Shown: positions 182 through 22,178 of the stretch, one piece after another | Position numbering within the stretch: the first letter of the stretch is position 1 | How the letters are laid out: each line of letters begins with the position of its first letter | Origin: a virus | Reading direction: 5' to 3' (one strand) | IMG/VR virus record: IMGVR_UViG_3300020057_000035 | Coordinates: 1 to 64,000 of that record | DNA: 64,000 nt | Notes under the pieces: generated by a model | Told to the model about the DNA's origin: nothing | The model's database searches: none | What the model saw: the letters and a program-made list of their open reading frames with translations, nothing else | Program-made: the position numbers and the translations under genes

Positions 182-294
182 GAACTGACGTTCTATTTGA
201 CATAACGTACTTGACATGCCGTTATGGCATATCGGAACGGATGTTCGAATGTTTCACGTGAAACATTTCCTGGCTTAAATCGGAACGGATGTTC
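182..294. promoter_or_regulatory. Three LexA (Cheo-type GAAC-N4-GTTC) boxes at 182-193, 235-246, 283-294
   Basis: Exact GAAC-N4-GTTC matches (TAGAACTGACGTTCTA; GGAACGGATGTTCG twice). Confidence 0.65.
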
Positions 295-313
295 GAATGT
301 TTCACGTGAAACA
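250..313. promoter_or_regulatory. parS: Two parS palindromes TGTTTCACGTGAAACA (250-265, 298-313) within a 48-bp tandem duplication
   Basis: Exact match to the canonical chromosomal parS 16-mer. Confidence 0.85.
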
Positions 314-669
314 TTTCCTGGCTTAAATCGGAAAAACCGTTTCAAATGATTAACTCGAAAAAACCGCGAAAAGTGCCCCTCGCGCGGCGCGCGACCGTAT
401 ATATGCTTTTATATGAAATCTGCGGAAAATCCGGTGGGTTGCGGCGCGCCGTCGCGCGACGGCGACGCGAGTGAAAAAAATACCCCACGCGGCGACGGGG
501 CCACGCAGGGTAAATTTAAGTGCGTTTTATTTAAGTTAAGTCGTTTGTTCTGCTGGGCGTCAATACGTGTCAGTCTTGATATTGGCGCGGTTACTTTACT
601 CTCAATCTTTGGCGTCTGTCTCGACTTGAATTTTGGTGACGAGTGCTACACGCTCTACTGTAGTATCCG

Positions 670-891
670 CTAACGCATTCCGTCGATGTGGATTACCTTG
701 AAATTCTCAATGCGGCCACGCGGTTCGATGCATTCGCGGAGCAGGAGACGAGCGGCACGTAAGCGTGAATCGCACCAGTCGCGGCGATAGTGTCGGCCTT
801 GATCAGCACACCAATACCGTGCACCGAACGACGTTGGACTGCCCGGCATCCTGTAGGTTTCGATGGTCACTTTCATCTGTTTGTCCCTCAT
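670..891 (-). CDS. Cassette micro-protein (MRDKQMKV...), hypothetical
   Basis: ATG after AAGGAA directly downstream of promoter repeat at ~900-935. Confidence 0.7.
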   Translation of the reverse strand: MRDKQMKVTIETYRMPGSPTSFGARYWCADQGRHYRRDWCDSRLRAARLLLRECIEPRGRIENFKVIHIDGMR

Positions 892-1142
892 TTCCTTGAT
901 GATGTCATCATAGCATGGGGATCGATTTGGGTCAAGCAAAGTGTTCGGCATTCGAACCAATATGTTCTGCTTTTTACTCTCGTCATTATTTTCTTGCGTG
1001 TTTATGCATAATACACTGTAAACATGCCCTGAATAGCGCCAGGAACAGAATCTAGTGGCATAGCGGCGAAAAAGCTAGTATAATAGCTCTTTGCTAAAAA
1101 CAGGCTCAGAATCGAATCCTACAGCATCTGAATGATCTGATG

Positions 1143-1225
1143 TTTCAAAATTCAGATTTTAAATTCTAAAATACAAATTTAATTTCTCAAATCTGAATCT
1201 TGAAACTTGAAACCTGAATTTAGGT
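1143..1225. repeat. AAAT/AAATT-rich tract (copy 1 of 5)
   Basis: Short-period A/T tracts; related tracts at 7192, 15484, 22945, 36591. Confidence 0.8.
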
Positions 1226-1437
1226 TTTAGTACTTAGAATCCTTGTTCCTCACCAAGAACCAAGAGATGGCGTTTCTTTTTCTTACTTTGGTGATACCAT
1301 TGTATCGCGATTTGGGATTTGGGTCAAGCGCCGCCCACGCTTGACATAACGCTACCAGCGAACTAACGGAGTTGCCACCCAAGCGCGTACTCTGTGATGC
1401 AATCATAGCATGGGAGTCGATTTGGGTCAACTCCCTG

Positions 1438-1638
1438 CTAGTCGTCCTGTCGATTGTCACGTGGCACGAATTCCCTGTATGCCTCTTCGGTGTCGTATTC
1501 AATCTGGGTGACGTTGAGAGCGTCCCTGTAGCGTTCTACCAGTTTCTCGCCGTTCATATGCATCTCGAAAATTTCGGTCACCTTGTACTCAGTGCCGTTG
1601 ACAGTTTCCAGTCGAGTACGCTTTACGCTGTCTTGCAA
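1438..1638 (-). CDS. Cassette micro-protein (MQDSVKRTRLE...), hypothetical
   Basis: TTG start with GAGGA RBS after promoter repeat. Confidence 0.6.
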   Translation of the reverse strand: MQDSVKRTRLETVNGTEYKVTEIFEMHMNGEKLVERYRDALNVTQIEYDTEEAYREFVPRDNRQDD

Positions 1639-1705
1639 TCTTTGTTCCTCAATTCCTTGTGATGCTATCATAGCATGGGGATCGATTTGGGTCAAGGGGA
1701 ATCGC

Positions 1706-1894
1706 CTACCACTTTTCACCTTGCCGTCGCATCCCAAAATGCAGATTTGGGAATCGAACGCACTGCAGCATTGCGATCCCGCCTCGGATTTGAAATTTCA
1801 GTCCACCTTTGCATTGGCCACAATATGGAAATTCCGTGTGCAGGCTTTGCATCAGGGCCTGATCCTCATCCAACATATGCATAATGCCAGCCAT
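1706..1894 (-). CDS. Cassette micro-protein with CxxC
   Basis: RBS GAGGGA + ATG after promoter repeat; YCGQC motif. Confidence 0.6.
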   Translation of the reverse strand: MAGIMHMLDEDQALMQSLHTEFPYCGQCKGGLKFQIRGGIAMLQCVRFPNLHFGMRRQGEKW

Positions 1895-1974
1895 CGGTTC
1901 CCTCACTTCCTTTGTGATGCTATCATAGCATGGGAGGCGATTTGTGTCAAACGCCGCTCTCGCGTGACATAAGG

Positions 1975-2148
1975 TTAGGTGCTGGCCTCTTCAAGGAATG
2001 TAGCTGGCGTGGGGTCGTTGCCATCATAGCAAAGTTGGCACTGGTATCCGGCGATCTGGTCGTCGTCGCGATACGTTAGTGGGTAACGCTCGCCAGCAAT
2101 GCGGCGCTCACACTTTAAGCAATGGGTTCTGAGGGATTCGGGGGTCAT
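1975..2148 (-). CDS. 57-aa zinc-ribbon micro-protein (MTPESLRTHCLKC...CQLC...), below ORF-track cutoff
   Basis: Translated by hand; two CxxC pairs; AAGGA RBS. Confidence 0.7.
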   Translation of the reverse strand: MTPESLRTHCLKCERRIAGERYPLTYRDDDQIAGYQCQLCYDGNDPTPATFLEEAST

Positions 2149-2160
2149 GGGTCACGTCCT

Positions 2161-2355
2161 TCACTTGCTGATGCAATCATAGCACGTCGGGGGATTTGGG
2201 TCAAGGGGAGTCGTAAACGCGGCTCGGTAGGCACGAGCCTCGCGATCCCAGTCGTCGTCGATTTCCTCTTCATCGTCACGCCAGTCATCCGCGCCGTTGT
2301 GTTGCGCCTTATAGATTTCTTCATGATCTGTGTGATTTGCCCATCCGTAAGCCAT
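2161..2355 (-). CDS. Acidic cassette micro-protein (MAYGWANH...DDEEEIDDDW)
   Basis: ORF track; ATG follows promoter repeat. Confidence 0.6.
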   Translation of the reverse strand: MAYGWANHTDHEEIYKAQHNGADDWRDDEEEIDDDWDREARAYRAAFTTPLDPNPPTCYDCISK

Positions 2356-2552
2356 GGCGGTTTCTCACTTCCAAAGTTTAACTCTGTGATGCAATCATAG
2401 CACGTCGGGGGATTTGGGTCAAGCGTCGTCGTCGGCGTGCTCTTACGATTTGGGTCAAACGCCGCTCTCGCGTGACATAAGGTTAGGGCATGGGTCACGT
2501 CCTTCACTTGCTGATGCAATCATAGCACGTCGGGGGATTTGTGTCAAGTCCC

Positions 2553-2753
2553 TTAGATGAGAGTCTTGGCGTAAATCACCATCTTGTCGAACATATCTTC
2601 AGGGAAGATCATAACACCAACGATTTCGTCGGCGTCCGTGTCGCGGAGGCTGACGTGGTAAGCTTTGGTGGCAAGGTTCTGGCGGATTTCCGCAGCCACG
2701 GAGTAAAGATCGGATTTCAGAACTGAGATGAGTTCGTAAACAGCATTGGGCAT
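2553..2753 (-). CDS. Cassette micro-protein, hypothetical
   Basis: ORF fills the space between two promoter repeats. Confidence 0.7.
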   Translation of the reverse strand: MPNAVYELISVLKSDLYSVAAEIRQNLATKAYHVSLRDTDADEIVGVMIFPEDMFDKMVIYAKTLI

Positions 2754-2816
2754 GGGTCACGTCCTTCACTTGCTGATGTAATCATAGCACGTCGGGGGAT
2801 TTGTGTCAACTCCCGC

Positions 2817-2978
2817 TCAATTCTGGAGGAAGCACTTTCGCACGATAGTGGCTTGCCAATACCCGCCCGCATCATAGGAAGGGGATTTTACCCATTCTAC
2901 TTCGAATTGTGCGGCGCAATCGTCGCAAAGCAGGGTAGGGGTCAGGGTGTTACATTCAAGGCAGAATCCGAATTCCAT
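2817..2978 (-). CDS. Zn-finger micro-protein family A, variant 1 (MEFGFCLECNTLTPTLLCDDC...)
   Basis: CxxC..CxxC; ATG at 2978 after repeat. Confidence 0.7.
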   Translation of the reverse strand: MEFGFCLECNTLTPTLLCDDCAAQFEVEWVKSPSYDAGGYWQATIVRKCFLQN

Positions 2979-3043
2979 TGCGTTTCTCACTTCCTGATGT
3001 AATCTTAGCACGTCGGGGGATTTGTGTCAACTCCCGCTCAATT

Positions 3044-3390
3044 CTAGGATGTGCTTGCCGGGCACATATATTCGTGATAATCTTGTCCACAATCGGGGCA
3101 CGATTCGTCGAATTGTGCGGCGCAATCGTCGCAAAGCAGGGTAGGGGTCAGGGTGTTACATTCAAGGCAGAATCCGAATTCCATTGCGTTTCTCACTTCC
3201 TGATGTAATCTTAGCACGTCGGGGGATTTGTGTCAACTCCCGCTCAATTCTAGGATGTGCTTGCCGGGCACATATATTCGTGATAATCTTGTCCACAATC
3301 GGGGCACGATTCGTCGAATTGTGCGGCGCAATCGTCGCAAAGCAGGGTAGGGGTCAGGGTGTTACATTCAAGGCAGAATCCGAATTCCAT
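3044..3390 (-). CDS. Family A variant 2, two identical tandem cassettes (3044-3184 and 3250-3390; 46 aa)
   Basis: Exact 206-bp tandem duplication; same 25-aa N-terminus as variant 1, different C-terminus. Confidence 0.7.
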
Positions 3391-3485
3391 TGCGTTTCTC
3401 ACTTCCTGATGTAATCTTAGCACGTCGGGGGATTTGTGTCAAGGGGAGTCGTCGAACATCCCCTCAGCACACTATGTGATTTGTG

Positions 3486-3683
3486 TCAACGAGACATCGC
3501 GAATTCGTGTTGCCGATCTCGCAATTCGTCAAGGTTGTCATTCTCTTCACACTGCTCACAATTGTCGCACTGCTCACAATCGCCGCAGAACTGACAATCG
3601 TGGTAATGTCCGCCTTGGGCTTCCCAGTCCTCTTCAGCGCGGAGTCGGTTGCCTTCGTCGCGGTCATCTTCGTTGTAGCTCAT
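3486..3683 (-). CDS. Acidic Cys-rich micro-protein (CxxC repeats); paralog of 11432-11665
   Basis: MSYNEDDRDEG...CQFCGDCEQCDNCEQC. Confidence 0.7.
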   Translation of the reverse strand: MSYNEDDRDEGNRLRAEEDWEAQGGHYHDCQFCGDCEQCDNCEQCEENDNLDELRDRQHEFAMSR

Positions 3684-3773
3684 GTGGTTCTCCTTCACTT
3701 CCTGATGTAATCTTAGCACGTCGGGGGATTTGTGTCAACTCGATGATTTGCCTACCACACTTTGGGATTTGTG

Positions 3774-4103
3774 TCAAGCGCCACTCTCGCTTGACCAATA
3801 TATAGCACGGGAGTCGATTTGTGTCAACTCCCGCTTTAGTGCCGACGCTATTTCGTACCAGTCTACCACGCGAAGCGCGCTTAGTAGTAGATCCGAATAG
3901 ATCCCACTAGAAAGGTGTGGCATACTTTCATAATGGTGTTGTTCTAGCCTGGAGGTCAGATCGTATACGCTATCGCACATTCGCGCAGTCTCTGACCAAT
4001 ACTCCTGGCTACCCCGGTCGTTGTCGATCCATAGTTTCGCCGCCCAAGTTTCGTAGTTTGTCCACCCATTGTACTTGTTGGCATTCGGGGATTCGGGGGT
4101 CAT
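3774..4103 (-). CDS. YNGWxNYETW-family phage protein; paralog of 27717-28001
   Basis: Near-identical paralog in the window; ATG at 4103. Confidence 0.75.
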   Translation of the reverse strand: MTPESPNANKYNGWTNYETWAAKLWIDNDRGSQEYWSETARMCDSVYDLTSRLEQHHYESMPHLSSGIYSDLLLSALRVVDWYEIASALKRELTQIDSRAIYWSSESGA

Positions 4104-4156
4104 TTGGGTCACGTCCTTCACTTGCTGATGTAATCTTAGCACGTCGGGGGATTTGT

Positions 4157-4234
4157 GTCAAGCGGCGGGCTGGCAATCGTTGCAGCCTGTGTCCTTGAAT
4201 AAACCGTAATAGAACAGCACCGCTTGACTTCTAC
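4157..4234 (-). ncRNA. Candidate small structured RNA family 1 (copies 4157-4234, 4652-4729, 5555-5632)
   Basis: Own promoter, no RBS or ORF; terminal stem GTCAAGCGG/CCGCTTGAC and internal hairpin GGCTG-CAACGATTG-CCAGCC. Confidence 0.6.
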
Positions 4235-4259
4235 AATGTAGCACGTCGGGGGATTTGTG

Positions 4260-4460
4260 TCAACTACCCTTGTGGTCGATGTCCCATGTTTTCGCAGCAT
4301 CCCGCAAATCCCGTGTGGTAAGCAATCCAGCCGCTACCATTTCCAATGCCGCAGCCATCGCCCAATGTCGAGCATCATCAGGATTATCCCGATTATCGAA
4401 TGCCAGATTTACGTTTCGCATCGTATGCGTGTGCTCGATAGGACGGTTAAGAACAAGCAT
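4260..4460 (-). CDS. Cassette micro-protein MLVLNRPIEH...; same protein at 12853-13053
   Basis: Duplicated cassette. Confidence 0.75.
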   Translation of the reverse strand: MLVLNRPIEHTHTMRNVNLAFDNRDNPDDARHWAMAAALEMVAAGLLTTRDLRDAAKTWDIDHKGS

Positions 4461-4780
4461 TTTGTTTCCCTCAATTCCTTCTGATGCTATCATAGCATCG
4501 GGGGCGATTTGTGTCAACTACCCTACCCTTGTCCAAGACCAGGGCATGGGTCACGTCCTTCACTTGCTGATGTAATCTTAGCACGTCGGGGGATTTGTGA
4601 AAATTGCTTTTCTCACTTCCTGATGTAATCTTAGCACGTCGGGGGATTTGTGTCAAGCGGCGGGCTGGCAATCGTTGCAGCCTGTGTCCTTGAATAAACC
4701 GTAATAGAACAGCACCGCTTGACTTCTACAATGTAGCACGTCGGGGGATTTGTGTCAAGCGCCGCTCTCGCTTGACATTA

Positions 4781-4966
4781 TTAGATACGAATCAATGCAT
4801 CCTGAGCGTAGTCCACGGCTTCATCAGACGTGGTAAACGTGCGGCTGAAGTAAAGATCCTCTCCCTTGAACGTGTCGGCCTGATAGATTCCATCAGGCCG
4901 TAGGTGAACGTTGACCGAGTAACCAGCGTCGTATTCGATAGTCATGTTCGTGAGTGTTCGTTTCAT
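4781..4966 (-). CDS. Cassette micro-protein MKRTLTNMTIEY...
   Basis: ATG after repeat; N-terminus reused at 20827-20994. Confidence 0.7.
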   Translation of the reverse strand: MKRTLTNMTIEYDAGYSVNVHLRPDGIYQADTFKGEDLYFSRTFTTSDEAVDYAQDALIRI

Positions 4967-5039
4967 GTCTTTCACTTCCTGATGTAATCTTAGCACGTCG
5001 GGGGATTTGTGTCAAGCGCCGCTCTCGCTTGACATAATG

Positions 5040-5222
5040 CTACCCGTGAAGAAGCGAATACTTTCGCAATCTTTCGCGAGATTCTTCCAATCGCTCGGAG
5101 GCGAGTTTCGCGCGAAATTCCGCAGCAAACAAGTCACGGCGAGCATCTTCGTCACGCTCTTCGTGAATTTTAATCTCTGCGCGTAGTTCACGCTCGCCAT
5201 TTTGTTCTGATACCGATTGCAT
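5040..5222 (-). CDS. Charged helical micro-protein family B (MQSVSEQ...); variants at 6014-6241 and 20827-20994
   Basis: GGGGAG RBS; paralogs in the window. Confidence 0.7.
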   Translation of the reverse strand: MQSVSEQNGERELRAEIKIHEERDEDARRDLFAAEFRAKLASERLEESRERLRKYSLLHG

Positions 5223-5314
5223 TTCTTGTCTCCCTCTCACTTCCTGATGTAATCTTAGCACGTCGGGGGATTTGTGTCAAATCATCGATTTGACTACCAC
5301 ACTTTGGGATTTGG

Positions 5315-5455
5315 GTCAAGGAAGGTCTGACTTCTATTTATACCAGACTGTACCGGCGTCGTCCCGCCACTCATTCCCTAACCCCAACGCTACTAAGCGG
5401 ATCGGGACTGTGTTAGTTCTGTGGCGATGTCCGTTGTAGCTTCCTTAACTTCTAC
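5315..5455 (-). ncRNA. Candidate structured RNA family 2 (also 20181-20260, 20297-20418, 21039-21101)
   Basis: Closing stem differs but pairs in every copy; shared GCTA...TAC(A/T)(G/A)TCTGG-loop-(T/C)CAGA(C/T)C core. Confidence 0.65.
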
Positions 5456-5685
5456 AATATAGCACGTCGGGGAATTTGTGTCAACTCCCGTTCTGTGCTG
5501 CCAAAATTGCTTTTCTCACTTCCTGATGTAATCTTAGCACGTCGGGGGATTTGTGTCAAGCGGCGGGCTGGCAATCGTTGCAGCCTGTGTCCTTGAATAA
5601 ACCGTAATAGAACAGCGCCGCTTGACTTCTACAATGTAGCACGTCGGGGGATTTGTGTCAAGCGCCGCTCTCGCTTGACATAATG

Positions 5686-5940
5686 TTAGATTAGGCTCAA
5701 GGCCACGAGCCACGATGGTTGATCATGCGAACACGTTCCATCGGGTTCGATGCCACTACAGCCGTCTATGGCGCGTGCCACGCCGTCCATCATCCACCTT
5801 TCTAGGGTAGCATAGGTCGGCTGTTTTCCCTTCACGTTGGCGATTATGGCATCAGGGTAAGACGCCTGATATCTTTCAAGCGTAACGCCATCCCTGAGAG
5901 TCTTAAGACCGCGAGCTTCGCTGTAAACCTGGAGTGCCAT
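5686..5940 (-). CDS. Phage hypothetical protein (…DGVARAIDGC…EPDGTCSH…PSWL)
   Basis: ATG 5940 after repeat. Confidence 0.75.
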   Translation of the reverse strand: MALQVYSEARGLKTLRDGVTLERYQASYPDAIIANVKGKQPTYATLERWMMDGVARAIDGCSGIEPDGTCSHDQPSWLVALSLI

Positions 5941-6013
5941 GTCTTTCACTTCCTGATGTAATCTTAGCACGTCGGGGGATTTGTGTCAAGCGCCGCTCTC
6001 GCTTGACATAATG

Positions 6014-6241
6014 CTACCCGTGAAGAAGCGAATACTTTCGCAATCTTTCGCGAGATTCTTCCAATCGCTCGGAGGCGAGTTTCGCGCGAAATTCCGCAGC
6101 AAACAAGTCACGGCGAGCATCTTCGTCACGCCTAACCTGCTTTGCGACGATTGCGTCGCACAATTCGACGAATCGCTCTTCATGAATTTTAATCTCTGCG
6201 CGTAGTTCACGCTCGCCATTTTGTTCTGATACCGATTGCAT
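6014..6241 (-). CDS. Family B variant with 15-aa in-frame insertion
   Basis: Identical to 5040-5222 apart from a 45-nt insert. Confidence 0.7.
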   Translation of the reverse strand: MQSVSEQNGERELRAEIKIHEERFVELCDAIVAKQVRRDEDARRDLFAAEFRAKLASERLEESRERLRKYSLLHG

Positions 6242-6336
6242 TTCTTGTCACTTCCTGATGTAATCTTAGCACGTCGGGGGATTTGTGTCAACTCGATGAT
6301 TTGACTACCACACTTTGGGATTTGTGTCAAGTTCAG

Positions 6337-6404
6337 TGTTTCACGTGAAACATTCGCCCGCGTCTAGCACACTTTGGGATTTGTGTCAAGTCGAACATTT
6401 GTTC
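6337..6404. promoter_or_regulatory. parS: parS (6337-6352) and LexA box (6393-6404)
   Basis: TGTTTCACGTGAAACA; CGAACATTTGTTCT. Confidence 0.8.
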
Positions 6405-6598
6405 TAAACGTTATGTCAAGTCGGGATTACTGTCAACTTCTCGCGCGCGCGTGAGTATATATGCGTATATAAAAATCATGGGAAAATTCATACGAATTTT
6501 GGCGCGGACGCTGGCGCGAGTAAAAAAAATACCCCGCGCGGCGGACCACGAAGGGTAAAATTTAAGTGTGCTTTATTTTTAAGTTTGAACACTTTATG

Positions 6599-6934
6599 CT
6601 AGTAGGCTAGACCAGCTTTGGTCAACACACTAGCATATCTGTTCAATACGTTACCAGCATAGAGAAGTTGATCGATTGTCATCTCACCACGTACCAAATA
6701 ATCGGAGTATTCCGCGTCAGGCCATGAATTCGTATCCACACCACCACACACGGGCGAGTGCATGTACTGCCATGCAGCCGGTAGATTCTCACCGTCGGGA
6801 TAGAGTACGTCGTGATAGATTACGTCGGCAATGGCGAACATGTGTGACATTGTAGTACCCCATGGATCATTGTCACCGTATTCCATTCGTACCATTGACA
6901 TTGCTTCTTTTTTCTCTGTGACTGTCAATACCAT
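6599..6934 (-). CDS. Hypothetical protein
   Basis: 111-aa ORF with AAGGA RBS downstream of a promoter. Confidence 0.75.
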   Translation of the reverse strand: MVLTVTEKKEAMSMVRMEYGDNDPWGTTMSHMFAIADVIYHDVLYPDGENLPAAWQYMHSPVCGGVDTNSWPDAEYSDYLVRGEMTIDQLLYAGNVLNRYASVLTKAGLAY

Positions 6935-7191
6935 TTTGTGTTCCTTGGTTTTTCTTGGATGTGCTTAGTATAGCATCGTTCGACATTTGAGTCAAGCAAA
7001 GGGGTATGTTATGTCTCTTCTTTGCCTTTTCTGCGTTGTTTTCTTGAGTGAAGCAAATAGCTAGCTACTACGGTAGCGTTTTTGATTGTTATACGCTTAA
7101 AGAATCGAATCCTACTGTGCCTGGGGGCATGTTTAGAGTGCTTAAAAATATGCTTAGAATCGAATCCTACAGTGTCTGAATGATCTGGATG

Positions 7192-7272
7192 TTTCAAAAT
7201 TCAAATTTTAAATTCTAAAACGCAAATTCAATTTCTCAAATCTGAATTCTAAAATTTGAAATTTGAATCTCT
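7192..7272. repeat. AAAT-rich tract (copy 2)
   Basis: Close homolog of 1143-1225. Confidence 0.8.
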
Positions 7273-7292
7273 AAATAGCAGACTAGCGATCC

Positions 7293-7760
7293 CTAAGGAC
7301 TCGCCCAGAATCGTCTACGTCGCCAGTCGCAATCTTTGCGGTGTTCATCGGAATGGAAAGTCGGTTCGTTTGTTTCCTTGCCACAATACATACAAGTTAC
7401 CCTGTTTTTTCCTTCACTTCCTGATGTTAATCTTAGCACGAGAGTCATCAATGAAAGGGTGGATGGTTTCGAATTCACGATACCATTCTGGGATTTTACC
7501 CATTCTACTTTGAATCTGGCGGCGCAATCGTCGCAAAGCAGGTTAGGAGTCAGGGTGTTACATTCAATGCAGAATCCGAATTCCATTGCTCTTCCTGATG
7601 TTAATCTTAGCACGAGAGTCATCAATGAAAGGGTGGATGGTTTCGAATTCACGATACCATTCTGGGATTTTACCCATTCTACTTTGAATCTGGCGGCGCA
7701 ATCGTCGCAAAGCAGGTTAGGAGTCAGGGTGTTACATTCAAGGCAGAATCCGAATTCCAT
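7293..7760 (-). CDS. Family A variant 3: internally duplicated chimera carrying a Fic-gene fragment and eroded promoters
   Basis: 174-bp tandem duplication; 44 nt copied from 7900-7943. Confidence 0.5.
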   Translation of the reverse strand: MEFGFCLECNTLTPNLLCDDCAARFKVEWVKSQNGIVNSKPSTLSLMTLVLRLTSGRAMEFGFCIECNTLTPNLLCDDCAARFKVEWVKSQNGIVNSKPSTLSLMTLVLRLTSGSEGKNRVTCMYCGKETNEPTFHSDEHRKDCDWRRRRFWASP

Positions 7761-7813
7761 TGCGTTTCTCACTTCCTGATGTAATCTTAGCACGAGAGTC
7801 GATTTGTGTCAAC

Positions 7814-8242
7814 CTATCCCCAAAGTTGCGGAGGAGTGACGGGATGATCAACATTGCCCGCTAGGATATTCCAAACTATGGAACCCGTACGTCCGTTGCC
7901 ATCAATGAAAGGGTGGATGGTTTCGAATTCACGATACCATTCTAGGGCGTCTACGTTGGCGTTGGCGAGACTTTCCATGGCGCGCGGGATATTGCTAGGA
8001 TCAACTCCCTTGTCCCCACTGGCGAACATTCTGGTAACTTTGGCATACTCCGCTGAAGACGGTTTGCCTAACACCAAACCAGCAATAAACTTGATAGTCT
8101 CGGTGTGAGTCACGGAAGGAAAACTCTTTGCATGATCCCATGCACGCAACATGTAAGGAACGAACTCTGGTCCATCCCCCTGTCGCTTAACTTCTTCTGA
8201 TGCCCAGATAACTTCGTGCAGGGTGAACATTTGTTCTCTCAT
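7814..8242 (-). CDS. Fic/Doc domain protein
   Basis: HPFIDGNGR Fic motif. Confidence 0.9.
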   Translation of the reverse strand: MREQMFTLHEVIWASEEVKRQGDGPEFVPYMLRAWDHAKSFPSVTHTETIKFIAGLVLGKPSSAEYAKVTRMFASGDKGVDPSNIPRAMESLANANVDALEWYREFETIHPFIDGNGRTGSIVWNILAGNVDHPVTPPQLWG

Positions 8243-8279
8243 TTCTGTAACTTAAGTATGGCATACTTAAGTATTTGTG

Positions 8280-8606
8280 TCAAGCGCCACACATTCCCTT
8301 CGTTGTTTCCATGTATTCTTTCACCGCTTCTTGCATTGCATCGTTTTTCATGTTCTTGGAATTCTCCAGAGTAATCTTCCCCCAGCATAAACTTGTCAGC
8401 ATTTTGGCAACTTCTTTTGCCGCCCATACCGTGGCATATCTTCCCGGGAGTTTTAAGCCAGTTACTTCGTGAGTGATTATCCACTTGCCGGATTCCTTTC
8501 CGGTAGTGTATTCTCGGTGAATAAAGAATTGATTAATCCTGTATCCACTGACTTTTACTTGGGCGGTTCCGTTGCTAGTTCCTGTAAGAATCTTTGCGGT
8601 TTGCAT
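8280..8606 (-). CDS. Hypothetical protein (MQTAKILTG...)
   Basis: GAGGA RBS; N-terminus shared with 8608-8811. Confidence 0.65.
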   Translation of the reverse strand: MQTAKILTGTSNGTAQVKVSGYRINQFFIHREYTTGKESGKWIITHEVTGLKLPGRYATVWAAKEVAKMLTSLCWGKITLENSKNMKNDAMQEAVKEYMETTKGMCGA

Positions 8607-8812
8607 CTTAGAAATTCCTCTGGATATGCGTATCTATCAATCTTCCAGCTCCAACTGATGTGGCTGACTCATCTTCCCATCCACAAGTATCGCAACGTAC
8701 CAAGAAGGAGCGCCTCGACCACCGGACAGGACTACCGGCCTCGTGGATTTTGTTCTTACCCTTTCGGGCGGTTCCGTTGCTAGTTCCTGTGAGAATCTTT
8801 GCGGTTTGCATC

Positions 8813-13053: not shown

Positions 13054-13364
13054 TTTGTTTCCCTCATTTCCTTGATGTAATCATAGCACGCTGGGCTATT
13101 TGTGTCAACTACCCTACCCTTGTCCAAGACCAGGGCATGGGTCACGTCCCGTCACTTGGTAAGACCATCGTAGCACGTCGGGAGATTTGTGTCAAGGGAA
13201 GTCGCCTTCACATCCATATATGCCAGATGTGTCCATTTCCTAGGCCGGGTAAAAATAATTCCCCGCGCAGTGCAATATCACTACTTCTGGCGACTTCCTT
13301 CACTTCCTGATGTAATCTTAGCACGGGAGTCGATTTGTGTCAACTCCCGTGCAGTGTTATTTGT

Positions 13365-13613: not shown

Positions 13614-13666
13614 TTCCTTCTGATGCTATCATAGCATGGGGATCGATTTGAGTCAACCCGTCCTGC

Positions 13667-13876
13667 CTAGAATCGAGATCCTAGGCAATTGAGAGAGATC
13701 GCATCTCCAGCGATATCAATCCCGTTAGGCGGGTTAGATTCTACGTGTACCATAGCACCACAATTTTGACACTGCGCCCACGCCCACGCTGGCCAATGAT
13801 GGAATTGACCCATGCTATGCCCATGCCACGTGCAGGATTCGAGTGCAGATTTTCGGAGTGTCTTAACTGATGCCAT
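13667..13876 (-). CDS. Zn-binding micro-protein (CxxxGH...CQNC)
   Basis: ORF between repeats. Confidence 0.7.
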   Translation of the reverse strand: MASVKTLRKSALESCTWHGHSMGQFHHWPAWAWAQCQNCGAMVHVESNPPNGIDIAGDAISLNCLGSRF

Positions 13877-13917
13877 GGTGGTTTCTCACTTCCAAAGTTT
13901 AACTTCCTGATGCAATC

Positions 13918-14139
13918 TTAGCACGTCGGGGGATTTGTGTCGAGTGCCCGCCATACGATGGCCCAGACTTTGCGAGCGGCGGCGTAGGCGTCAAGGTGGG
14001 CGGCGATGGCGGCGGTGTAGGCATCGTGTCGCTCGTCGCCACCCAGCGCATCGAACGCCTCACGGGCGGCGTCTGTCAATGCGTTGAGAGCGTCGGCTGA
14101 TGCAAACACTTCGCGGTAAACGGTGGCGTAAACAGGCAT
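13918..14139 (-). CDS. Ala-rich cassette micro-protein
   Basis: ORF between repeats. Confidence 0.65.
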   Translation of the reverse strand: MPVYATVYREVFASADALNALTDAAREAFDALGGDERHDAYTAAIAAHLDAYAAARKVWAIVWRALDTNPPTC

Positions 14140-14335
14140 GGGTCACGTCCTTCACTTGCTGATGCAATCTTAGCACGTCGGGAGATTTGTGTCAAGTCGC
14201 CTTCACATCCATATATGCCAGATGTGTCCATTTCCTAGGCCGGGTAAAAATAATTCCCCGCGCAGTGCAATATCACTACTTCTGGCGACTTCCTTCGACT
14301 TCCTGATGTAATCTTAGCACGGGAGTCGATTTGTG

Positions 14336-14506
14336 TCAACGACACTTGTCCGAGGCCCATCGCGGGCCGAATTCCTTGCATTTGGTAAAGGCGATCCTTC
14401 GTGCGTGTTTTCCCCAGTGCCTTGCAATGCATGTCGTATGGATCGGATGCATATCGAAGATGGGCATAAATTCTTTACCGCAACATCGGCAGATAATTGT
14501 TTCCAT
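14336..14506 (-). CDS. Cys/His-rich micro-protein
   Basis: ATG 14506 after repeat. Confidence 0.65.
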   Translation of the reverse strand: METIICRCCGKEFMPIFDMHPIHTTCIARHWGKHARRIAFTKCKEFGPRWASDKCR

Positions 14507-14656
14507 GGCGTTTCTCACTTCCTGATGCAATCTTAGCACGCTGGGAGATTTGAGTCAAGTTATCGACGGTCTCGATTGTGCTTACCACATTTCTGCATTT
14601 GTGTCAAATCGAACAAATGATAAGGCTGGTGATCTGATATTTATTACGATCCCCAA

Positions 14657-14672
14657 TGTTTCACGTGAAACA
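14657..14672. promoter_or_regulatory. parS: parS palindrome
   Basis: TGTTTCACGTGAAACA. Confidence 0.85.
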
Positions 14673-14770
14673 CTTTTTCACGATTTTTTCGATTTAATTG
14701 AAAAAAAAAAACGATTTGGGGGTCGCACGCATTATATATGCGTATATTAAAAAATCACGGAAAAATCCCC

Positions 14771-15154
14771 CTAACCATGCGCATTACATTTTTCATTTTT
14801 CAAATTGCTCTTTACTATAGATTCAAAAACCCAATTTCTTAGAAAAGGAAATTCAAGTCTTATCTCTTCTAAGTAATTCTTTCCTCCGCATTCAATAAAT
14901 CCTTCCGCCCACTGCTTAATTTGAAAATTAAGGTTGACTTTGCCCTGTAATGCGGAGAATAACAACCTGGGATGCTTAGTTGAAGCCCTTTCCCCATTCT
15001 CCCACTTCAAAAATGCTTTATTAGCTGAATAACCATTATTTTCTTTCTTAATTATGGGATTACTCCCGTTAGTAGGGGGAATGAAGCTTTTATCCCATAA
15101 TCTGTACCATTTTACATATATCCAGAAATCAGGATGTATTTTTTCATTTTTCAA
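14771..15154 (-). CDS. AT-rich hypothetical protein
   Basis: 127-aa ORF. Confidence 0.6.
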   Translation of the reverse strand: MKNEKIHPDFWIYVKWYRLWDKSFIPPTNGSNPIIKKENNGYSANKAFLKWENGERASTKHPRLLFSALQGKVNLNFQIKQWAEGFIECGGKNYLEEIRLEFPFLRNWVFESIVKSNLKNEKCNAHG

Positions 15155-17009
15155 ATTATTTCTACTTTAAATTAAGCCTCCTCTTTTACTGCCCTTCTAT
15201 CTCGGAACCTAAACCACCAAATAATTCTACGTGCGGTGTGCGACCCTATCATATCACCAGCATTTCTGTTGCAAATGCACGGAACGACTGGTCCTCCGTT
15301 CCCGCGCCACATGTTTGCACGTGCTTTGTGATCGCCGCGTTCGCCGCGATCTCGTCCCGGAACATTGCACGACCTACTGAGCACGCACATTGAACGGCTA
15401 TCCAGCCTCGATCAGAAGACACTAGAACTTCGAACATGACCATTCTCCTTGAAATAGAGCTGCATGGCGATCTATTCGCCATATTTCAAAATTCAAATTC
15501 TAGATTTCAATTTCTAAATATAAAATCTAGTTTCTGAAATCTTTAATGTCTAATCTATATGTGCGAGATACGGATCTCTATCTGATAGTTGTGTACCAAT
15601 ATACTCGTATGAAATTAGATTCAATTTGACCATTTCATCAATGATCCTCATTGCCCACGCTCGGGATTCTATTTTTTTGTTCACGTTGAGGTAAGCGATT
15701 GATTTGCTTAGTGCTCTGTTGATCTCTGTTCTATCTGTCATATTTACAGATTACCACTCTGTGAGATTTGTGTCAAGTCTATCTGTTTCTCTTTAACTCT
15801 TCGACTTACGTTTCGTTTATTGTACTCTGTTTTTCGTGTGTTTGCTTCTCTTGAGGTTTCGTGCTCCCATACTGGAGTACCAGTGCTGTCAATGTAGTTC
15901 GGACGTGCATATTTGATGCGGGGATCATCGTCACCATGATATTGTACGTCTTTACGTCCTAGATCAATCCATCTCTTTGGATCATAGACTTCTCGTCCTT
16001 TGCGCCCTATTAGTTCGGCCATGCTGTATTGTGTACCTCTTCCTCTATTTTGTTTTGTTCTTCTTGGTGTTCTTCTGCTTGTGCTTGTGCATCCGACCAA
16101 TCACTACTAGATCCTACGGAATCATTACAGTCATAGCAGAAAGCGACGTATCCACTATAGGGATGATCGTCACAGCATCCCCCACGGTCTGAGACACTTA
16201 CTTCGTGTTCCATTACTCTATGAACAATCCCGCAATCGCGAAAGTGAAACAAAGAGTAGCGAAGAAGAATAATTCAAACATTTACTTTTTCCTTCAACGT
16301 AATTGTGTTTTTTAATATGCCCTCAATACTGAACCCAAGTGCTCCAATCTCACAAAGATTGCTGCAATAGGTCAGCCGTAGGCTTGATGTGCTCTTAGAC
16401 GTTGTGTATATCGTCTTGCATCGCTCACAAACTTTCATCGTGTCCACCTTTGTATTGTTTCTAACTACTCACAGTGTATCATCAAAGGGCATTTGTGTCA
16501 ATAAGCATAATAATGAGTGCTCTTTCCCTAAACCTGTCAAACCTAGATATTTGGGGTACGTAACCATGCGTGAATCGCTTTGTGTGTATATTCAATTTCT
16601 ATGATATCCAGGACTTGAGGAAAGAACTGTTGAGTAGGGGAGAAACGTCCATTGCGAAGAGAAAAAGCCAATTGATCCATATTTTTGATTTCTAGCTTTT
16701 CATCACTTTCGCTTTGTATTCTTTCATACAAATCAATAAACAATTCCATCTTATCTTCATTCAGTGTACTCGAAAACCAACTAGTCATATAGTTTCTCCT
16801 GTAGTGTGGCGCACTTTTCTGCATCATCATCTGGGGCCGCCCGCGTTGGCCTTGTGACGTTGCCCGCCCAAAATGTGAGCAACGTCACGCTCGTCGGGTA
16901 TGCCGGTCGCTGGTTGTTGCGGCCCACCTTCACGAGATCAGTCATCATAGGGGCCAATCCGCTAGCAGGTCCCATGCGTTTGCCACAAGTTCGCAGGTGG
17001 CGGCGGGCA

Positions 17010-17339
17010 TCAATCTTCGTTAGGATCATCGTCGAAAAATACGTGCATCGAAACTACTCGACCCTCTCGATTCTTCTCTACATATACGGGATAAAATCCA
17101 TCACCGTAGCCTGTTTCCACTGCTACAGCATAACCGCTGTCTAGGTCACCTGAACGTTCCTTAGAATTTGATGCTTGACAAGCGCCCTCGTAGCTATATG
17201 CGTATGGCAGCTTACAATCCTCTGGCTCTAAATTAAGATTGTTTCCATGTGTAACAAACCGATCAAGATAGCAGGGATCGCCTACCATCACCTGACCAGA
17301 ATCTACCATCACTTTGCCCACAAGTTCCATTATGTCCAT
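17010..17339 (-). CDS. DUF4241-like protein
   Basis: VDSGQVMVGDPCY and TGYGDGFYPVY motifs. Confidence 0.65.
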   Translation of the reverse strand: MDIMELVGKVMVDSGQVMVGDPCYLDRFVTHGNNLNLEPEDCKLPYAYSYEGACQASNSKERSGDLDSGYAVAVETGYGDGFYPVYVEKNREGRVVSMHVFFDDDPNED

Positions 17340-17867
17340 CCTTCTTTTTTCCTCTGTGTACTTAATATACCAGACTTAGGTATTTGTGTCAACTCCCGTT
17401 CTGTACTGCCACGGGACTGCTCGCCATGCGGCATCTTCCGCCTTTGCTGTTTCATACCACGCTTCATCTTCGATGGGCATAGGGTGGGAAGATTTGCGCC
17501 TCCAACTACTCGCCATCCTTGCAGTGCTTTCTGCCTTTGCAGATTCACGCCATATGGCGTAGGCTATGTCGAAAGTATTTATTGACACTTCTTTGTTCCT
17601 CATTTCCTTGATGTAATCATAGCACGCTGGGAGATTTGTGTCAAATTATCTTTGTGCGCGCAAAGTCGATCATCCAACGAATACCAGAAAGAGTATCTGC
17701 TTTAACATAACCATAGTCTGGTACTAGGGCGGAATACATGTCTGAGTGCTCAATACGATCAACGGTTATTCCATGATAGGTGCGTAGTTTCATGTTTGTT
17801 CCTTTTCCTTGGTGCGTTTATTGTAGCAGCAGAACCTATTTGTGTCAAGTGACACGTTGTGTCAATC

Positions 17868-18251
17868 TTAGAAAGGCACATATACCCTGAATAGTGGGGG
17901 ATGCACCCGCCACATTTCCATGCGATCCGCCGCACTTAATTCATAGCCCTCTCCGGTTCCCATAATTCCTTCGCCTTCGATATGATTCAGCCAAAGGCAA
18001 TGACCGACTTCGTGTGTAATAATCTTCTGTTGAAGCTGAGCAGGATATGTTTGCCATACTGGTGGTACCCAGATTACACAACTGCCTTCAGCAACATAAG
18101 TCCATGCGGCCCAAATGCGTTCATATTCGCGAAAATCTACATTATCACTAGTAGACGAATCATGTACCTGAATATCAGGTACAGTAAACATGGAACCAAG
18201 GGCACTCCATAATGCAAGGGCAATCATCACCATTGTTTGTACTAATCCCAT
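17868..18251 (-). CDS. Secreted or membrane-anchored metzincin (matrixin-like) zinc metalloprotease
   Basis: HEVGHCLWLNH zinc motif plus downstream GIM Met-turn; hydrophobic N-terminus. Confidence 0.75.
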   Translation of the reverse strand: MGLVQTMVMIALALWSALGSMFTVPDIQVHDSSTSDNVDFREYERIWAAWTYVAEGSCVIWVPPVWQTYPAQLQQKIITHEVGHCLWLNHIEGEGIMGTGEGYELSAADRMEMWRVHPPLFRVYVPF

Positions 18252-18253
18252 AT

Positions 18254-18574
18254 CTAATCTCCGTCTCCGTAGATTGATTTGTATGCCACCGTATGCCACC
18301 GTCGAGCGGTGCTATGTGCGATCGCAACATCGTCGGAAGAAAAGTATTGGGGGAAAGTGAGAGCAACGATTGACCAATCGCAATCCTCTTCGTAGATACC
18401 TTCTTCTATACTCCACCTGGAATCAATCTCGGCGTTCCTACGCTTGCCTAGAATGTAGCCGCCGTGTGACGGAGTTTCGTACCTGATGATACCAGGGCCA
18501 TAGGTACGAGCGGTCTCCGACGTACCCCACGGGGTGCTGCGCTTGACATATCGTGCTTCTGGTTCTGTGTACAT
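18254..18574 (-). CDS. Conserved phage/MGE protein (STPWG...TPSHGG...YEEDCDW; DUF7007-like)
   Basis: Motif recognition. Confidence 0.65.
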   Translation of the reverse strand: MYTEPEARYVKRSTPWGTSETARTYGPGIIRYETPSHGGYILGKRRNAEIDSRWSIEEGIYEEDCDWSIVALTFPQYFSSDDVAIAHSTARRWHTVAYKSIYGDGD

Positions 18575-18627
18575 GTTCTTTCCTCACTTGCTTGATGATG
18601 TAATCTTAGCACTGAAAGGTATTTGTG

Positions 18628-18924
18628 TCAACCACCCATAAGGTTGGAAGCATCAGATGTATACCACCTATAGATGGCATCTAGTGCTATACGTGCTGGC
18701 CTGTCTCCACCGTGCTCAAATTCTTTTACTGTGAGATTGGCGAGTAGGTTGTATGCAAATGCGATTGCCAATTGTGGATAGAATGGTGCGGCATTCTTCG
18801 CTGCCTGTTTTGTACCATATGGACACGCCCATCCATAATCCAGAATCACATCGTACAGCGTCTCAGGGACTGCTATACACGCTTCCGCTCCGCCATAGTG
18901 TGCATGAAACAATTTGTCTTTCAT
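18628..18924 (-). CDS. Hypothetical protein
   Basis: GAGGA RBS after promoter. Confidence 0.7.
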   Translation of the reverse strand: MKDKLFHAHYGGAEACIAVPETLYDVILDYGWACPYGTKQAAKNAAPFYPQLAIAFAYNLLANLTVKEFEHGGDRPARIALDAIYRWYTSDASNLMGG

Positions 18925-19296
18925 TTTGCTTTCCTCGACTGTTCTGTGATGTAATCTTAGCCTAGATTGAGGTTTGTGTCAAGGTGCTTACACCCAAACT
19001 TAGATCCACCGTACCAATGCCCTTCCCACATAGTTCCACTAAGAATATACTGCTGGATATTGTTCCTATGTGGGGAAAAAGGATCTTGTTGTGCAATCCT
19101 AGCAAAGACATTCAATACCTTGATCTTTTCTCTGATAGTAAGCTCATGGAAAGTACGTGCCGCTACAATGTATGCCCTATTATTACCGAAGGACAACGGA
19201 ATTACGGTTGCTTTCATTTTCTTTTCCTCATTCGCTTTTTCTTGTTGATGTAATCTTAGCACGATAGGGGATTTGTGTCAAACAGGCTTCGGTAGT

Positions 19297-19587
19297 TCAC
19301 TTTACCCTGATGGTTACGAAGTAATGATGGTCACAATCATCATCTTCTGAGCACTCACACAATTGTGTGTAGTTCCCTGAGTATGCGGAAGTATCGATCG
19401 TACTGGTATCGTAACCTTGATGTGTAATCTGCTCACAAGCGTCCTCTGCCGCATCACGCTCGCTTTGACCAATACCTGTAGCAAGGTCGTCGAAGTCCAT
19501 ATAAGACTGACGCCAAAGATTGAGAGTAAAGTATTGGCTATGATCGTAGGATATCTCGATGTCGTATTGTTGAATCTTCCTCAACAT
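19297..19587 (-). CDS. Acidic hypothetical protein, paralog of 10320-10610
   Basis: Paralogy. Confidence 0.75.
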   Translation of the reverse strand: MLRKIQQYDIEISYDHSQYFTLNLWRQSYMDFDDLATGIGQSERDAAEDACEQITHQGYDTSTIDTSAYSGNYTQLCECSEDDDCDHHYFVTIRVK

Positions 19588-19668
19588 TTATTTTATCCTT
19601 TCAAGAATTTTCCATCTTTGTTTCCTCGATTGCTTGATGTACCTATAGTATCATCGCTCTTGATTTGT

Positions 19669-19965
19669 GTCAAGTAAGTAGTTCAGCGTTGCACTATCGG
19701 CGGATGTATCTTCCTCATCCCGATTAAGCCTGTGTAGTGATCGCTGAACATCCTAAGTACTACCACTACATGATAACCGTCAGTAGCCAAAGGCATAGAT
19801 CCCCTACCTCTTCAATGAGCCGATAGGGGTAACTACCTTCTATGAAGGCGCACGGTTGTTTTACCCGTGCCTCATCCTGCGCCTACAGGGCAGACTTCTG
19901 TCGTCAAAAATACAGGTACCGGGATTCTTTACGAATTAGGAACCCATACGCATTTTTGACTTCTT
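19669..19965 (-). ncRNA. Multi-hairpin non-coding cassette ending in a family 3 domain
   Basis: Promoter at ~19965-19995; stem GTCAAAAATGC/GTATTTTTGAC plus further hairpins; no ORF in the track. Confidence 0.55.
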
Positions 19966-20476
19966 AATACTAACACCCTAGAGCATTAGTGTCAAGTCTG
20001 AATAATTGTTATTTAACCATAATAACTAAGGTGTCTTTGTGTTCTTGCACTTTGCTTTAACTTTAGTGCGTCTTGATGTTTTAATTGCCCTCTTATTAAC
20101 CGCATGAGGGCTAAGCGTTGCCGTCTATTTCGTGCTGTCACTCTACTCGTTGCCCGCAAGGTAGATGCCGGTTTGATGTCGCAACGGTCTGGGCTTTGGT
20201 ACTCACCAGACTGTATTTCGATACCCGCTGTTGCAACAGATAGGGTTTGAATAGCGTTGCTTCAACTCATTAAGAATAGCACACTGGCTAATTTGTGTCA
20301 AGTGGTCTGACTCACAAACCAGACTGTACGATTATTTATCACCAATCAACCTACACACGGGTTGCGTAGGCCACTCCCACTTCGTCAGTGAACGCGGTTT
20401 CGATAGCACTTGACTTCTTAAGTATACCTTAAATAGGTATTTGTGTCAACTTCCTCATGGAATTGCCACACAGAAA

Positions 20477-20734
20477 TTAAGACGAAATTTCTCGCAGCTT
20501 TGCACCGTCCCAAATTGCCCCTTCGGCAAGAATGGCGCGCGATTCGTGAGCGCGACCGCCCCGATGGGCGGTCATAACGGACATTACCACATCTGCCAAC
20601 TCGGCGCTTGATAGCTTGTCGAAAAGTGTGGGCTTGATATCCGCTATTACTGCTGCCCATGTCGCCTGTCCGGTGTGATAACCGGCCTGCTGGACGGTAC
20701 ACAGCGCCCGGTTAATTTTGACTGAATGATTCAT
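20477..20734 (-). CDS. Hypothetical protein
   Basis: GGAG RBS. Confidence 0.7.
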   Translation of the reverse strand: MNHSVKINRALCTVQQAGYHTGQATWAAVIADIKPTLFDKLSSAELADVVMSVMTAHRGGRAHESRAILAEGAIWDGAKLREISS

Positions 20735-20826
20735 GATTCTCTCCCAAAAAAAGTTAGCTGTGATTTCATTAAGACTATCTTAGCTTAAGTTTGGATTTGT
20801 GTCAAGCGCCGCTCTCGCTTGACATG

Positions 20827-20994
20827 CTACCCGTGAAGCAGAAAATACTTTCGCAGTCTTTCGCGAGATTCTTCCAATCGCTCGGCAGCGAGTTTCGCGC
20901 GAAATTCCGCAGCAAACAAGTCACGGCGAGCATCTTCGTCACGCTCTTCGTGAATTTTCATCTCGATAGTCATGTTCGTGAGTGTTCGTTTCAT
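20827..20994 (-). CDS. Chimeric micro-protein (N-terminus of 4781-4966 + C-terminus of family B)
   Basis: Direct sequence comparison. Confidence 0.7.
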   Translation of the reverse strand: MKRTLTNMTIEMKIHEERDEDARRDLFAAEFRAKLAAERLEESRERLRKYFLLHG

Positions 20995-21103
20995 GTCTTT
21001 CACTTCCTGATGTAATCTTAGCACGTCGGGGGATTTGTGTCAAGGGCGATCTGACTTGTCGATACCAGATAGTACGTATACTACTTCGTAGCGTCCCTGA
21101 CTG

Positions 21104-21418
21104 TTAGCTCTTTACTTTTACGAGCTTGCCAAAGAGCGTCTTAAAGACCGGTACACCATTGACGATAGTGTAATCAAGGTGACTGAACGATTCAGCCGCA
21201 ATGCTCACAAGACGCGCCTTAGCAGTCTCTGCCTTCTGTTCTGCCGTGAACGACGGTCGCCCACGGGGGTTAGGTGGATTGGCAAGACGTTCAGCCGCCT
21301 TGGCCTCTGCACGCTCAGCCTTGATGGCCTCAGTAAGTGGAGGGCGTCCTCGTCCACGCTTACCCTTGCCGACCTCAGTCGGAGCTTCTGATTCCCGAAT
21401 AATTTCAAGTGTCGCCAT
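21104..21418 (-). CDS. AT-hook DNA-binding protein
   Basis: KRGRGRPP and PRGRPS AT-hook motifs. Confidence 0.7.
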   Translation of the reverse strand: MATLEIIRESEAPTEVGKGKRGRGRPPLTEAIKAERAEAKAAERLANPPNPRGRPSFTAEQKAETAKARLVSIAAESFSHLDYTIVNGVPVFKTLFGKLVKVKS

Positions 21419-22078
21419 TGATTTGCCTCTTTCCTTTGTTTGCCACGTCAGATGTTGTGTTTTGTTCCTGACTCACTTAATATAAGTCAGATTTGCTTTT
21501 GTGTCAAGGGTTAATTTGACCTTTTTGAGAATTCCTTGAGGGTATTCTTGAGATTCCTGACGAGCGCCTTGGCGTCATATTCGGAGATCCACAGATCATA
21601 GCCCATATTGTCTTCCCAGAACGAAATACAGATAGGCGTATGGGCCTCTGCACTATCGAGCGTGAAGGTAGTCGAGTCAAATCTACTGTCAGTCAGCTCG
21701 ATCGTAGGGACGGGATCATGTGGGTTCTGATTTGAGATACTATTTCGTTTGATGACTTTTTCCTTGTTGTAAGGCGTTTCCCTCATCAACAATGCAATAA
21801 TAGCACGCTGGTCGATTTGCGTCAACTATTTTCTTAGGGCATAGCCCTTATTCGTTAACACCATATTGATGTCGCACCACAGTCCGCAAGGTAGCATAGC
21901 TAATCCTTGGTCAGCAGTAGCATCACACCCCAAACATCGAATTTGGGGTTCTTCCCCATCTCGCCCACAATTAGAGCAAGTGTAATGTACTCCGAATCCG
22001 TGTTTCATTTTTTCTTTCCTCAATTCCAGAGTAACTCTGTGATGCTATCATAGCATGCTGGTCGATTTGGGTCAAGTA

Positions 22079-22178
22079 GAACACTTGTTCTAATGTTTCA
22101 CGTGAAACAGTCGTCTACTATTTGTGTCAACCTACCCCACGTTATGTCAAGTGATTATGTTGATTAGAACATGGGTTC
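22079..22178. promoter_or_regulatory. parS: LexA box 22079-22090, parS 22094-22109, LexA box 22167-22178
   Basis: Exact motif matches. Confidence 0.8.

Follow-up and report, generated by a model that had tools for sequence, protein, structure and literature searches.

In this study, we analyzed the first 64 kb (hereafter the window) of the IMG/VR virus record IMGVR_UViG_3300020057_000035, which comprises 111,848 bp in total, and identified five exact copies of the sequence TGTTTCACGTGAAACA in its left part (Table 1). Each is a 16-bp palindrome fitting the chromosomal-type parS consensus TGTTNCACGTGAAACA, and is identical to the centromere site of chromosomal ParABS systems, where ParB (Spo0J) forms a cytidine triphosphate (CTP) clamp and loads SMC. 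Here, the sites are located on a virus, with no parAB or genes of a replication origin nearby, and the record does not encode a cognate protein. Recruitment of host ParB, as proposed in the initial annotation of this DNA, is the best-supported reading: the phage carries the exact universal parS, no phage ParB or ParA was found in 112 kb, the same 16-mer stands beside parAB in a candidate host lineage, and phage phi29 provides a precedent. We estimate a probability of about 0.5 that host ParB is indeed loaded onto the phage DNA at these five sites, a prediction made from the sequence.

Exact parS sites in the left part of the record

The initial annotation had listed five exact parS sites, all of them intergenic, and none in the right half. 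Each of these observations was reproduced. The sites are located between open reading frames (ORFs) of the minus strand, and dinucleotide shuffles of the window yielded 0.00 exact matches. No extra site was found in the window at up to 3 mismatches (0.33 expected), and no further site within 1 mismatch occurs anywhere in the 111,848-bp record. Thus, parS is confined to the left 22 kb. Among palindromes of 10-16 nt, it is the most repeated one in the record.

We found that the flanking sequence diverges right to both edges of the 16-mer and that all five 16-mers are perfect. This indicates that the 16-mer is the conserved unit, a pattern as expected from selection on the 16-mer. A hairpin or terminator role of parS was rejected, with an RNA hairpin of only -3.9 kcal/mol and no U tract after it on the transcribed strand.

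Sites 1 and 2 arose in a 48-bp tandem duplication (units 231-278 and 279-326). A 95%-identical metagenome fragment (L206) carries a single copy of this unit and one parS at hub 1, indicating that the copy number of the unit is polymorphic. In the same fragment, an additional 1.4 kb separates hub 1 from a G-rich repeat. In the window, this strand-polarised, telomere-like repeat (GAGAGGG and TGAGGG units) occupies positions 1-150 at the contig end, and L206 also terminates in a G-rich repeat (L206 3400-3511). The repeat could be a genome terminus or an assembly break point.

Table 1. Positions of the parS sites, their hubs and the early arm (window coordinates)
Feature	Position	Strand	Description
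parS site 1	250-265		hub 1; GAAC-N4-GTTC box at 235-246 ends 3 nt ahead
parS site 2	298-313		hub 1; within the second copy (279-326) of the 48-bp tandem unit
parS site 3	6337-6352		hub 3; amid two tandem leftward promoters; GAAC-N4-GTTC box 40 nt off
parS site 4	14657-14672		hub 4; about 50 nt upstream of a leftward TTGACA promoter; only a degenerate GAAC half-box nearby
parS site 5	22094-22109		hub 5; box AGAACACTTGTTCT (22078-22091) 3 nt off
Hub 1	150-560	-	GAAC-N4-GTTC boxes at 182, 235 and 283; two parS; TATATATG motif at about 398; strong minus-strand terminator at 481-512
Hub 3	6242-6598	-	terminator at 6532-6553 (minus strand); TATATATGCGTATA motif at 6456; GAAC box at 6393; tandem TTGACA promoters; parS
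Hub 4	14507-14770	-	TATATATGCGTATA motif at 14733; parS; leftward promoters
Hub 5	22009-22363	-	TATATATGTATATA motif at 22206; GAAC boxes at 22079 and 22167; parS; one leftward promoter
Early arm	880-33250	-	about 50 near-identical promoters (TTGACACAAATC-N8-TGCTAAGAT) with a ribosome binding site (RBS), each before an ORF of 45-150 amino acids (aa)

Phage ParB and ParA are absent from the available 112 kb

The record is classed as linear, with a CheckV completeness of 73% (about 27% of the genome missing). The statement of the initial annotation that the phage region has no parAB holds for the 112 kb at hand and does not reach the whole genome. In a six-frame profile search of the 111,848-bp record (E<=1), ParB_N, AAA_31 and CbiA were negative; the part of the record beyond the window likewise yielded no parA, parB or further parS. 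Phage_integrase and ResT/TelK were negative in the same kind of search, in which serine recombinases, repressors and plasmid replication initiators were not specifically searched for. Controls for these searches matched in known genomes. Among the Pfam and PHROG matches listed for 164 ORFs, there was no partition, integration or telomere-resolution family; for the 93 ORFs located beyond the early arm, the Pfam list gave 25 of 63 families. Thus, neither a phage ParA or ParB beside the sites nor an integrase or protelomerase match, as in a plasmid-prophage ParABS system, was found in the record.

The parS sites are located in early-promoter hubs beside LexA-type boxes

One aspect overlooked by the initial annotation is the context of the sites. 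The five parS are located in four repeated intergenic hubs (Table 1). Along the transcribed minus strand, the order in a hub is a strong intrinsic terminator of the upstream block, a conserved motif (TATATATG(C/T)(G/A)TATA...AAAATCAYGGGAAAA), a GAAC-N4-GTTC palindrome, and tandem promoters with parS. Typically, each hub has one or two of these palindromes and tandem TTGACA promoters with parS among them. Promoters are carried by hubs 3, 4 and 5, and hub 1 is without an obvious leftward promoter. Alignment of the hubs by MAFFT gave a mean column identity of 57%, with site 4 not placed in register with the others.

The GAAC-N4-GTTC palindrome occurs 8 times in the whole record, and 6/8 copies are at most 100 bp away from a parS. 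The gap between this box and parS is fixed at 3 nt at sites 1, 2 and 5. In hubs 3 and 5, the box is located 2 nt upstream of a -35 hexamer (the promoter of hub 5 being TTGACC-17-TATGAT). Site 3 overlaps a TTGACA-17-TAGACG promoter at about +2 to +17 and lies 6 nt upstream of the next -35 box. Green non-sulfur bacteria have GAACN4GTTC as their LexA box. In Gram-positive bacteria, GAACN4GTTC serves as the LexA (Cheo) box (PMC4234289, PMC2248561). We infer that the phage boxes are of LexA type, and predict that LexA binds and represses there.

The early-arm promoters are of the sigma-70 type, with an extended -10, a 17-nt spacer and a strong RBS downstream. In the first 20 kb, 87 promoter-like sites were found compared to 31 expected. 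The early arm is an extreme ‘one promoter per tiny gene’ layout. Many of its promoter/micro-ORF units are duplicated or shuffled, such as the 206-bp tandem units at 2902-3519. Pfam matches in the arm comprised DUF932, DUF7007, DUF6197, DUF7249, Fic, DpnD/PcfM and HNH, with no ParA, ParB or recognisable repressor among them. At 25384-33157 of the window, the arm encodes proteins that match families (DUF932, DUF7007, DpnD/PcfM, Fic, DUF6197, DUF4241) typical of the leading regions of plasmids and of anti-defence islands.

A fifth module without parS was found at 35.78-36.0 kb, where transcription diverges, with one GAAC box and four tandem TATATATG motifs. On the plus strand, the motif reads TATATATG..(A)AAAATC(A/C)C(G/A)..AAAT(T/C)C and is located at 398-440, 6456-6490, 14733-14770 and 22206-22245, with the four tandem copies in 35820-36000. 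One possibility is that the motif is an iteron or origin element; alternatively, it may be a promoter, antisense to the early genes, for a phage-specific factor. AT-rich inverted or iterated repeats (AAATCTGAAAT-like units) were also observed at 1142-1206, 7192-7275 and 36590-36740, about 850 bp rightward of hub 1, hub 3 and the 35.9-kb module.

Both host proteins and both sites exist in a candidate host lineage

The exteins of the phage SufB protein are nearest to those of Chloroflexota, with 57-65% identity for the N-extein and 67-83% for the C-extein. In the Chloroflexia metagenome-assembled genome (MAG) nearest to the phage SufB (G001), three perfect 16-mers within 180 bp precede parA-parB by about 5 kb, and a CGAACATCCGTTCG box lies directly before lexA. 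These findings show that both host proteins and both sites exist in that lineage. In two other Chloroflexota MAGs, parS was found at 1 mismatch. ParB_N was matched in 5/5 Chloroflexota MAGs, four of them above the cut-off. Since parS is near-universal, the site itself does not identify the host.

The GC content of the phage is 45-50% in the early arm (window 1-35000) versus 32% in the remainder (36000-111848 of the record). Its eight tRNAs (anticodons UAA, UAU, UCU, UUU, UUG, UAC and others) mostly read A-ending codons. Together, the GC contrast and the tRNA set suggest a host richer in GC than the phage core. A chimeric assembly behind the GC jump was rejected, because the promoter type, the TATATATG motif and the AT-rich repeat are present on either side of the boundary.

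Host-type parS sites without ParB recur among viruses

The genome of phi29 has five parS sites, and the host Spo0J is exploited for spore entrapment (PMC2731898; summarized also in PMC9437464). Host Spo0A boxes at the early promoters of phi29 suppress its lytic cycle (PMC2731898). Host-type parS has also been linked to the Bacillus phage Nf (Meijer et al. 2005, as cited in PMC2731898). In the phi29 genome, we detected four sites that match TGTTCCACGTGAAACA perfectly and a fifth, degenerate one that retains an intact core; most of the five are located inside genes in the right half of the genome.

The phage described here resembles phi29 as a lytic-looking phage that carries five host-consensus parS sites, and no parA or parB was found in its available 112 kb. 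Furthermore, Spo0A boxes place a global regulator of the host at the early promoters of phi29, and the predicted LexA-type boxes may be their counterpart here. However, phi29 infects a spore former and is a protein-primed podophage of 19 kb, whereas the present phage has about 150 kb and possibly a non-sporulating Chloroflexota host. The layout also differs. The parS sites of phi29 are mostly genic; here, they are all intergenic, within repeated early-promoter hubs, and tile only the early arm, at intervals of 6-8 kb. The coupling to LexA-type boxes, three of them at the fixed 3-nt gap to parS, is likewise distinct from phi29.

To survey other viruses, we scanned IMG/VR for the perfect 16-mer and found at least 119 contigs. 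Among the matches listed, 26 other records have two or more perfect sites, and ParB_N is absent in all of them (26/26), including eight that are at least 90% complete. Of these multi-parS records (loci L009-L122), several represent complete, possibly phi29-like genomes that span 12-18 kb and have inverted terminal repeats and a GC content of 37-41%, and others have 60-200 kb. Kinship with such contigs was not apparent, as none of the 119 matches listed had meaningful similarity to the phage. The phi29 precedent and this survey show that orphan host-type parS recurs among phages and is not new in kind, contrary to the novelty implied by the initial annotation.

A model for the recruitment of host ParB

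After entry of the phage DNA, ParB-CTP dimers of the host would nucleate at each parS and slide outward. With a site every 6-8 kb, the clamps could cover the whole early arm of about 30 kb. By analogy with phi29, the phage genome would then be segregated and retained by the host ParABS like a piece of the host chromosome for as long as the lytic programme is on hold. Located next to parS at the -35 elements, the LexA-type boxes would provide a host-state input that holds early transcription back, in the role of the Spo0A boxes of phi29. Bound ParB may also dampen the hub promoters somewhat, likely as a side effect.

The composite of GAAC-N4-GTTC, 3 nt and parS (31 bp) would allow a more elaborate scheme, which we consider unlikely. 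Here, host LexA and ParB would compete or cooperate, so that ParB-CTP loads only in a given SOS state, silences the 30-kb arm with its roughly 50 promoters and hands the genome to host segregation. A large phage of the virulent type, in a host that probably does not sporulate, would then have a dormancy switch that consists of two host proteins and involves no repressor or lysogeny genes.

Parts of this model have counterparts in known systems. GIL01 is referred to as a LexA-controlled phage in a citation within PMC9437464; there as here, host LexA-type boxes are located in phage promoter regions, and the state of the host may control the lytic programme. However, the boxes described here are predicted and paired with parS, and no lysogeny functions were seen. 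P1, N15 and SGI1 are mobile elements that use centromere sites for inheritance. P1 (parABS) and N15 (sopABC) encode their own ParA and ParB. SGI1 carries centromere sites and borrows the ParAB of an IncC plasmid (PMC10954446), and thus relies on a helper plasmid and not on the chromosome.

Several points weigh against the recruitment of host ParB. Binding of the host protein at the phage sites is itself a prediction, and the missing 27% or so of the genome could hold a ParB. The ribonucleotide reductase (RNR), ThyX, UvsX, polynucleotide kinase (PNK), RNA ligase and about 50 strong early promoters look virulent, and partition matters only if infection can pause. As the phi29 sites are mostly genic and not promoter-borne, the anatomy found here may point to a different primary role. 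The genome with the best SufB match has 65% GC versus 32% for the phage, which makes the host assignment weak. Finally, related DNA consists either of fragments 95-99% identical to the phage, which are too close to show conservation of the sites, or of TerL and DNA polymerase relatives at most 39% identical, which are too distant.

Alternative roles of the parS sites

Since every parS is located in a promoter hub, the primary role of host ParB may be transcriptional, with partition being incidental. ParB would then act as a repressor or roadblock at the hubs and, by sliding, as a KorB-like long-range silencer of the early arm, which we regard as possible but doubtful. In this case as well, host ParB would have to bind to the sites. 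The parS sites occur only in the early arm, at the heads of blocks after strong terminators. Site 3 overlaps one promoter and closely precedes another, and site 5 and its LexA-type box are located immediately upstream of a -35, all of which fits such a role. However, hub 1 has two parS in spite of its apparent lack of a leftward promoter, and site 4 is about 50 nt away from the nearest -35. The range of ParB spreading is compatible with the spacing of 6-8 kb and favors long-range silencing, but chromosomal ParB proteins are usually weak on transcription. The ParB-family CTP clamp KorB silences promoters kilobases away on plasmid RK2 (PMC11790492). The KorB/OB network of this IncP plasmid resembles the phage in that ParB-family-type sites are spread over promoter regions (here, hubs at 0.3, 6.3, 14.7 and 22.1 kb). 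However, RK2 encodes its own KorB, the clamp-locking KorA and TrbA, and a private operator, whereas the phage, with no ParB_N and hence no ParB-family regulator of its own in the record, would rely on host ParB. KorB also requires a clamp-locking partner (KorA or TrbA), and none was identified in the phage.

It is unlikely that the sites serve to titrate ParB. In this case, replicating phage DNA, with five perfect sites per copy, would soak up host ParB and disturb SMC loading, ParA/DnaA control and segregation. All five sites match the consensus perfectly and presumably have the highest affinity, they outnumber the three perfect sites of the 3.4-Mb candidate-lineage genome, and they are located in the early arm, which probably carries host-takeover genes. 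But a lytic phage gains little from segregation trouble within one infection cycle, and titration leaves the hub placement and the fixed 3-nt spacing to the GAAC boxes unexplained. To our knowledge, there is no experimental precedent for ParB titration by a phage.

A conventional partition system, in which a ParB (with or without ParA) from the missing 27% or so of the genome reads the sites as in P1, N15 and mycobacteriophage parABS, appears quite improbable. The 73% completeness of the record leaves room for it; N15 has scattered centromere sites near promoters, and the telomere-like G-rich repeat at the left end would also be in keeping with such an element. However, 112 kb are without ParB_N, a ParA-type ATPase, an integrase or a protelomerase. 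No structural genes were found among the listed Pfam and PHROG matches of the 164 ORFs, and the missing part is therefore probably the structural module. Moreover, plasmid and phage ParBs normally use a private site and not the exact chromosomal consensus, and the multi-parS viral records listed, including the eight nearly complete ones, are without ParB_N throughout.

A role without ParB is highly improbable: the phage does encode an XRE-type helix-turn-helix (HTH) protein, and operators are commonly palindromic, but an operator of an unrelated phage protein (e.g. HTH_3 at about 71.9 kb) would equal the universal parS at 16/16 positions in only about 1 in 65,000 palindromic 16-mers by chance, a functional RNA or DNA hairpin is at odds with the weak folding and missing U tract noted above, and four independent contexts with different flanks speak against inert captured host DNA.

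Gene content and relatives of the phage

Outside the early arm, the record codes for a class-II-like RNR with inteins, TerL with an intein, ThyX, RNA ligases, PNK, a UvsX-like recombinase, a primase, a helicase and a family-A DNA polymerase. Several methyltransferases, TnpB and SufB with an intein were also found. Such genes make up the set of a large phage of the virulent type, for which no close relative was found among cultured phages.

The 172-aa XRE-type HTH_3 protein, encoded on the minus strand at L001 8899-9417 (about 71.9-72.4 kb of the record), is the one clear candidate that we found for a site-specific regulator encoded by the phage itself. The gene for the Fe-S cluster assembly protein SufB, with its intein, is located at L001 15492-17981 (about 78.5-81.0 kb of the record), and the phage also carries an Fe-S_biosyn (SufA/IscA-like) gene. 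Inteins and homing endonucleases are very dense (window 47904-53852 and 54966-57473; L001 15492-17981, 8150-8764 and 13986-14840; L002 4171-6723). Their carriers include the RNR (1982 aa, with intein, LAGLIDADG and HNH domains), TerL, SufB and an exonuclease. RNA-ligase domains and intein fragments in two far-apart ORFs suggest a split intein. An Rfam scan of the first 40 kb revealed nothing but tRNAs.

We found no match to cultured phages by megablast with both halves of the window, and the best DNA polymerase matches had 31% identity. A single-protein scan of IMG/VR revealed no relative, and a promoter-pattern scan of it gave 0 matches. The promoter-pattern scan of JGI metagenomes retrieved three fragments (L203, L205, L206) that are 95-99% identical to the phage; two other hits (L204, L207) were rejected as chance pattern matches with no similarity. 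A TerL profile scan of IMG/VR detected only relatives of at most 37% identity, on contigs of at most 60 kb. A DUF932 homologue, 94% identical, is encoded on a 22-kb contig (P0001).

Implications for phage biology

Taken alone, the present case is a variant of a known phenomenon and holds no new principle. Together with the 26/26 survey, it suggests that phages commonly carry orphan host-type parS, a trait that has received little study. The layout of hubs and LexA-type boxes offers a concrete and testable model, in which two host DNA-binding proteins would set the fate of an infecting genome. If host ParB loads on this DNA, centromere borrowing would extend beyond phi29-type podophages of spore formers to a large, unrelated phage lineage, the host of which may be a GC-richer, non-sporulating bacterium.

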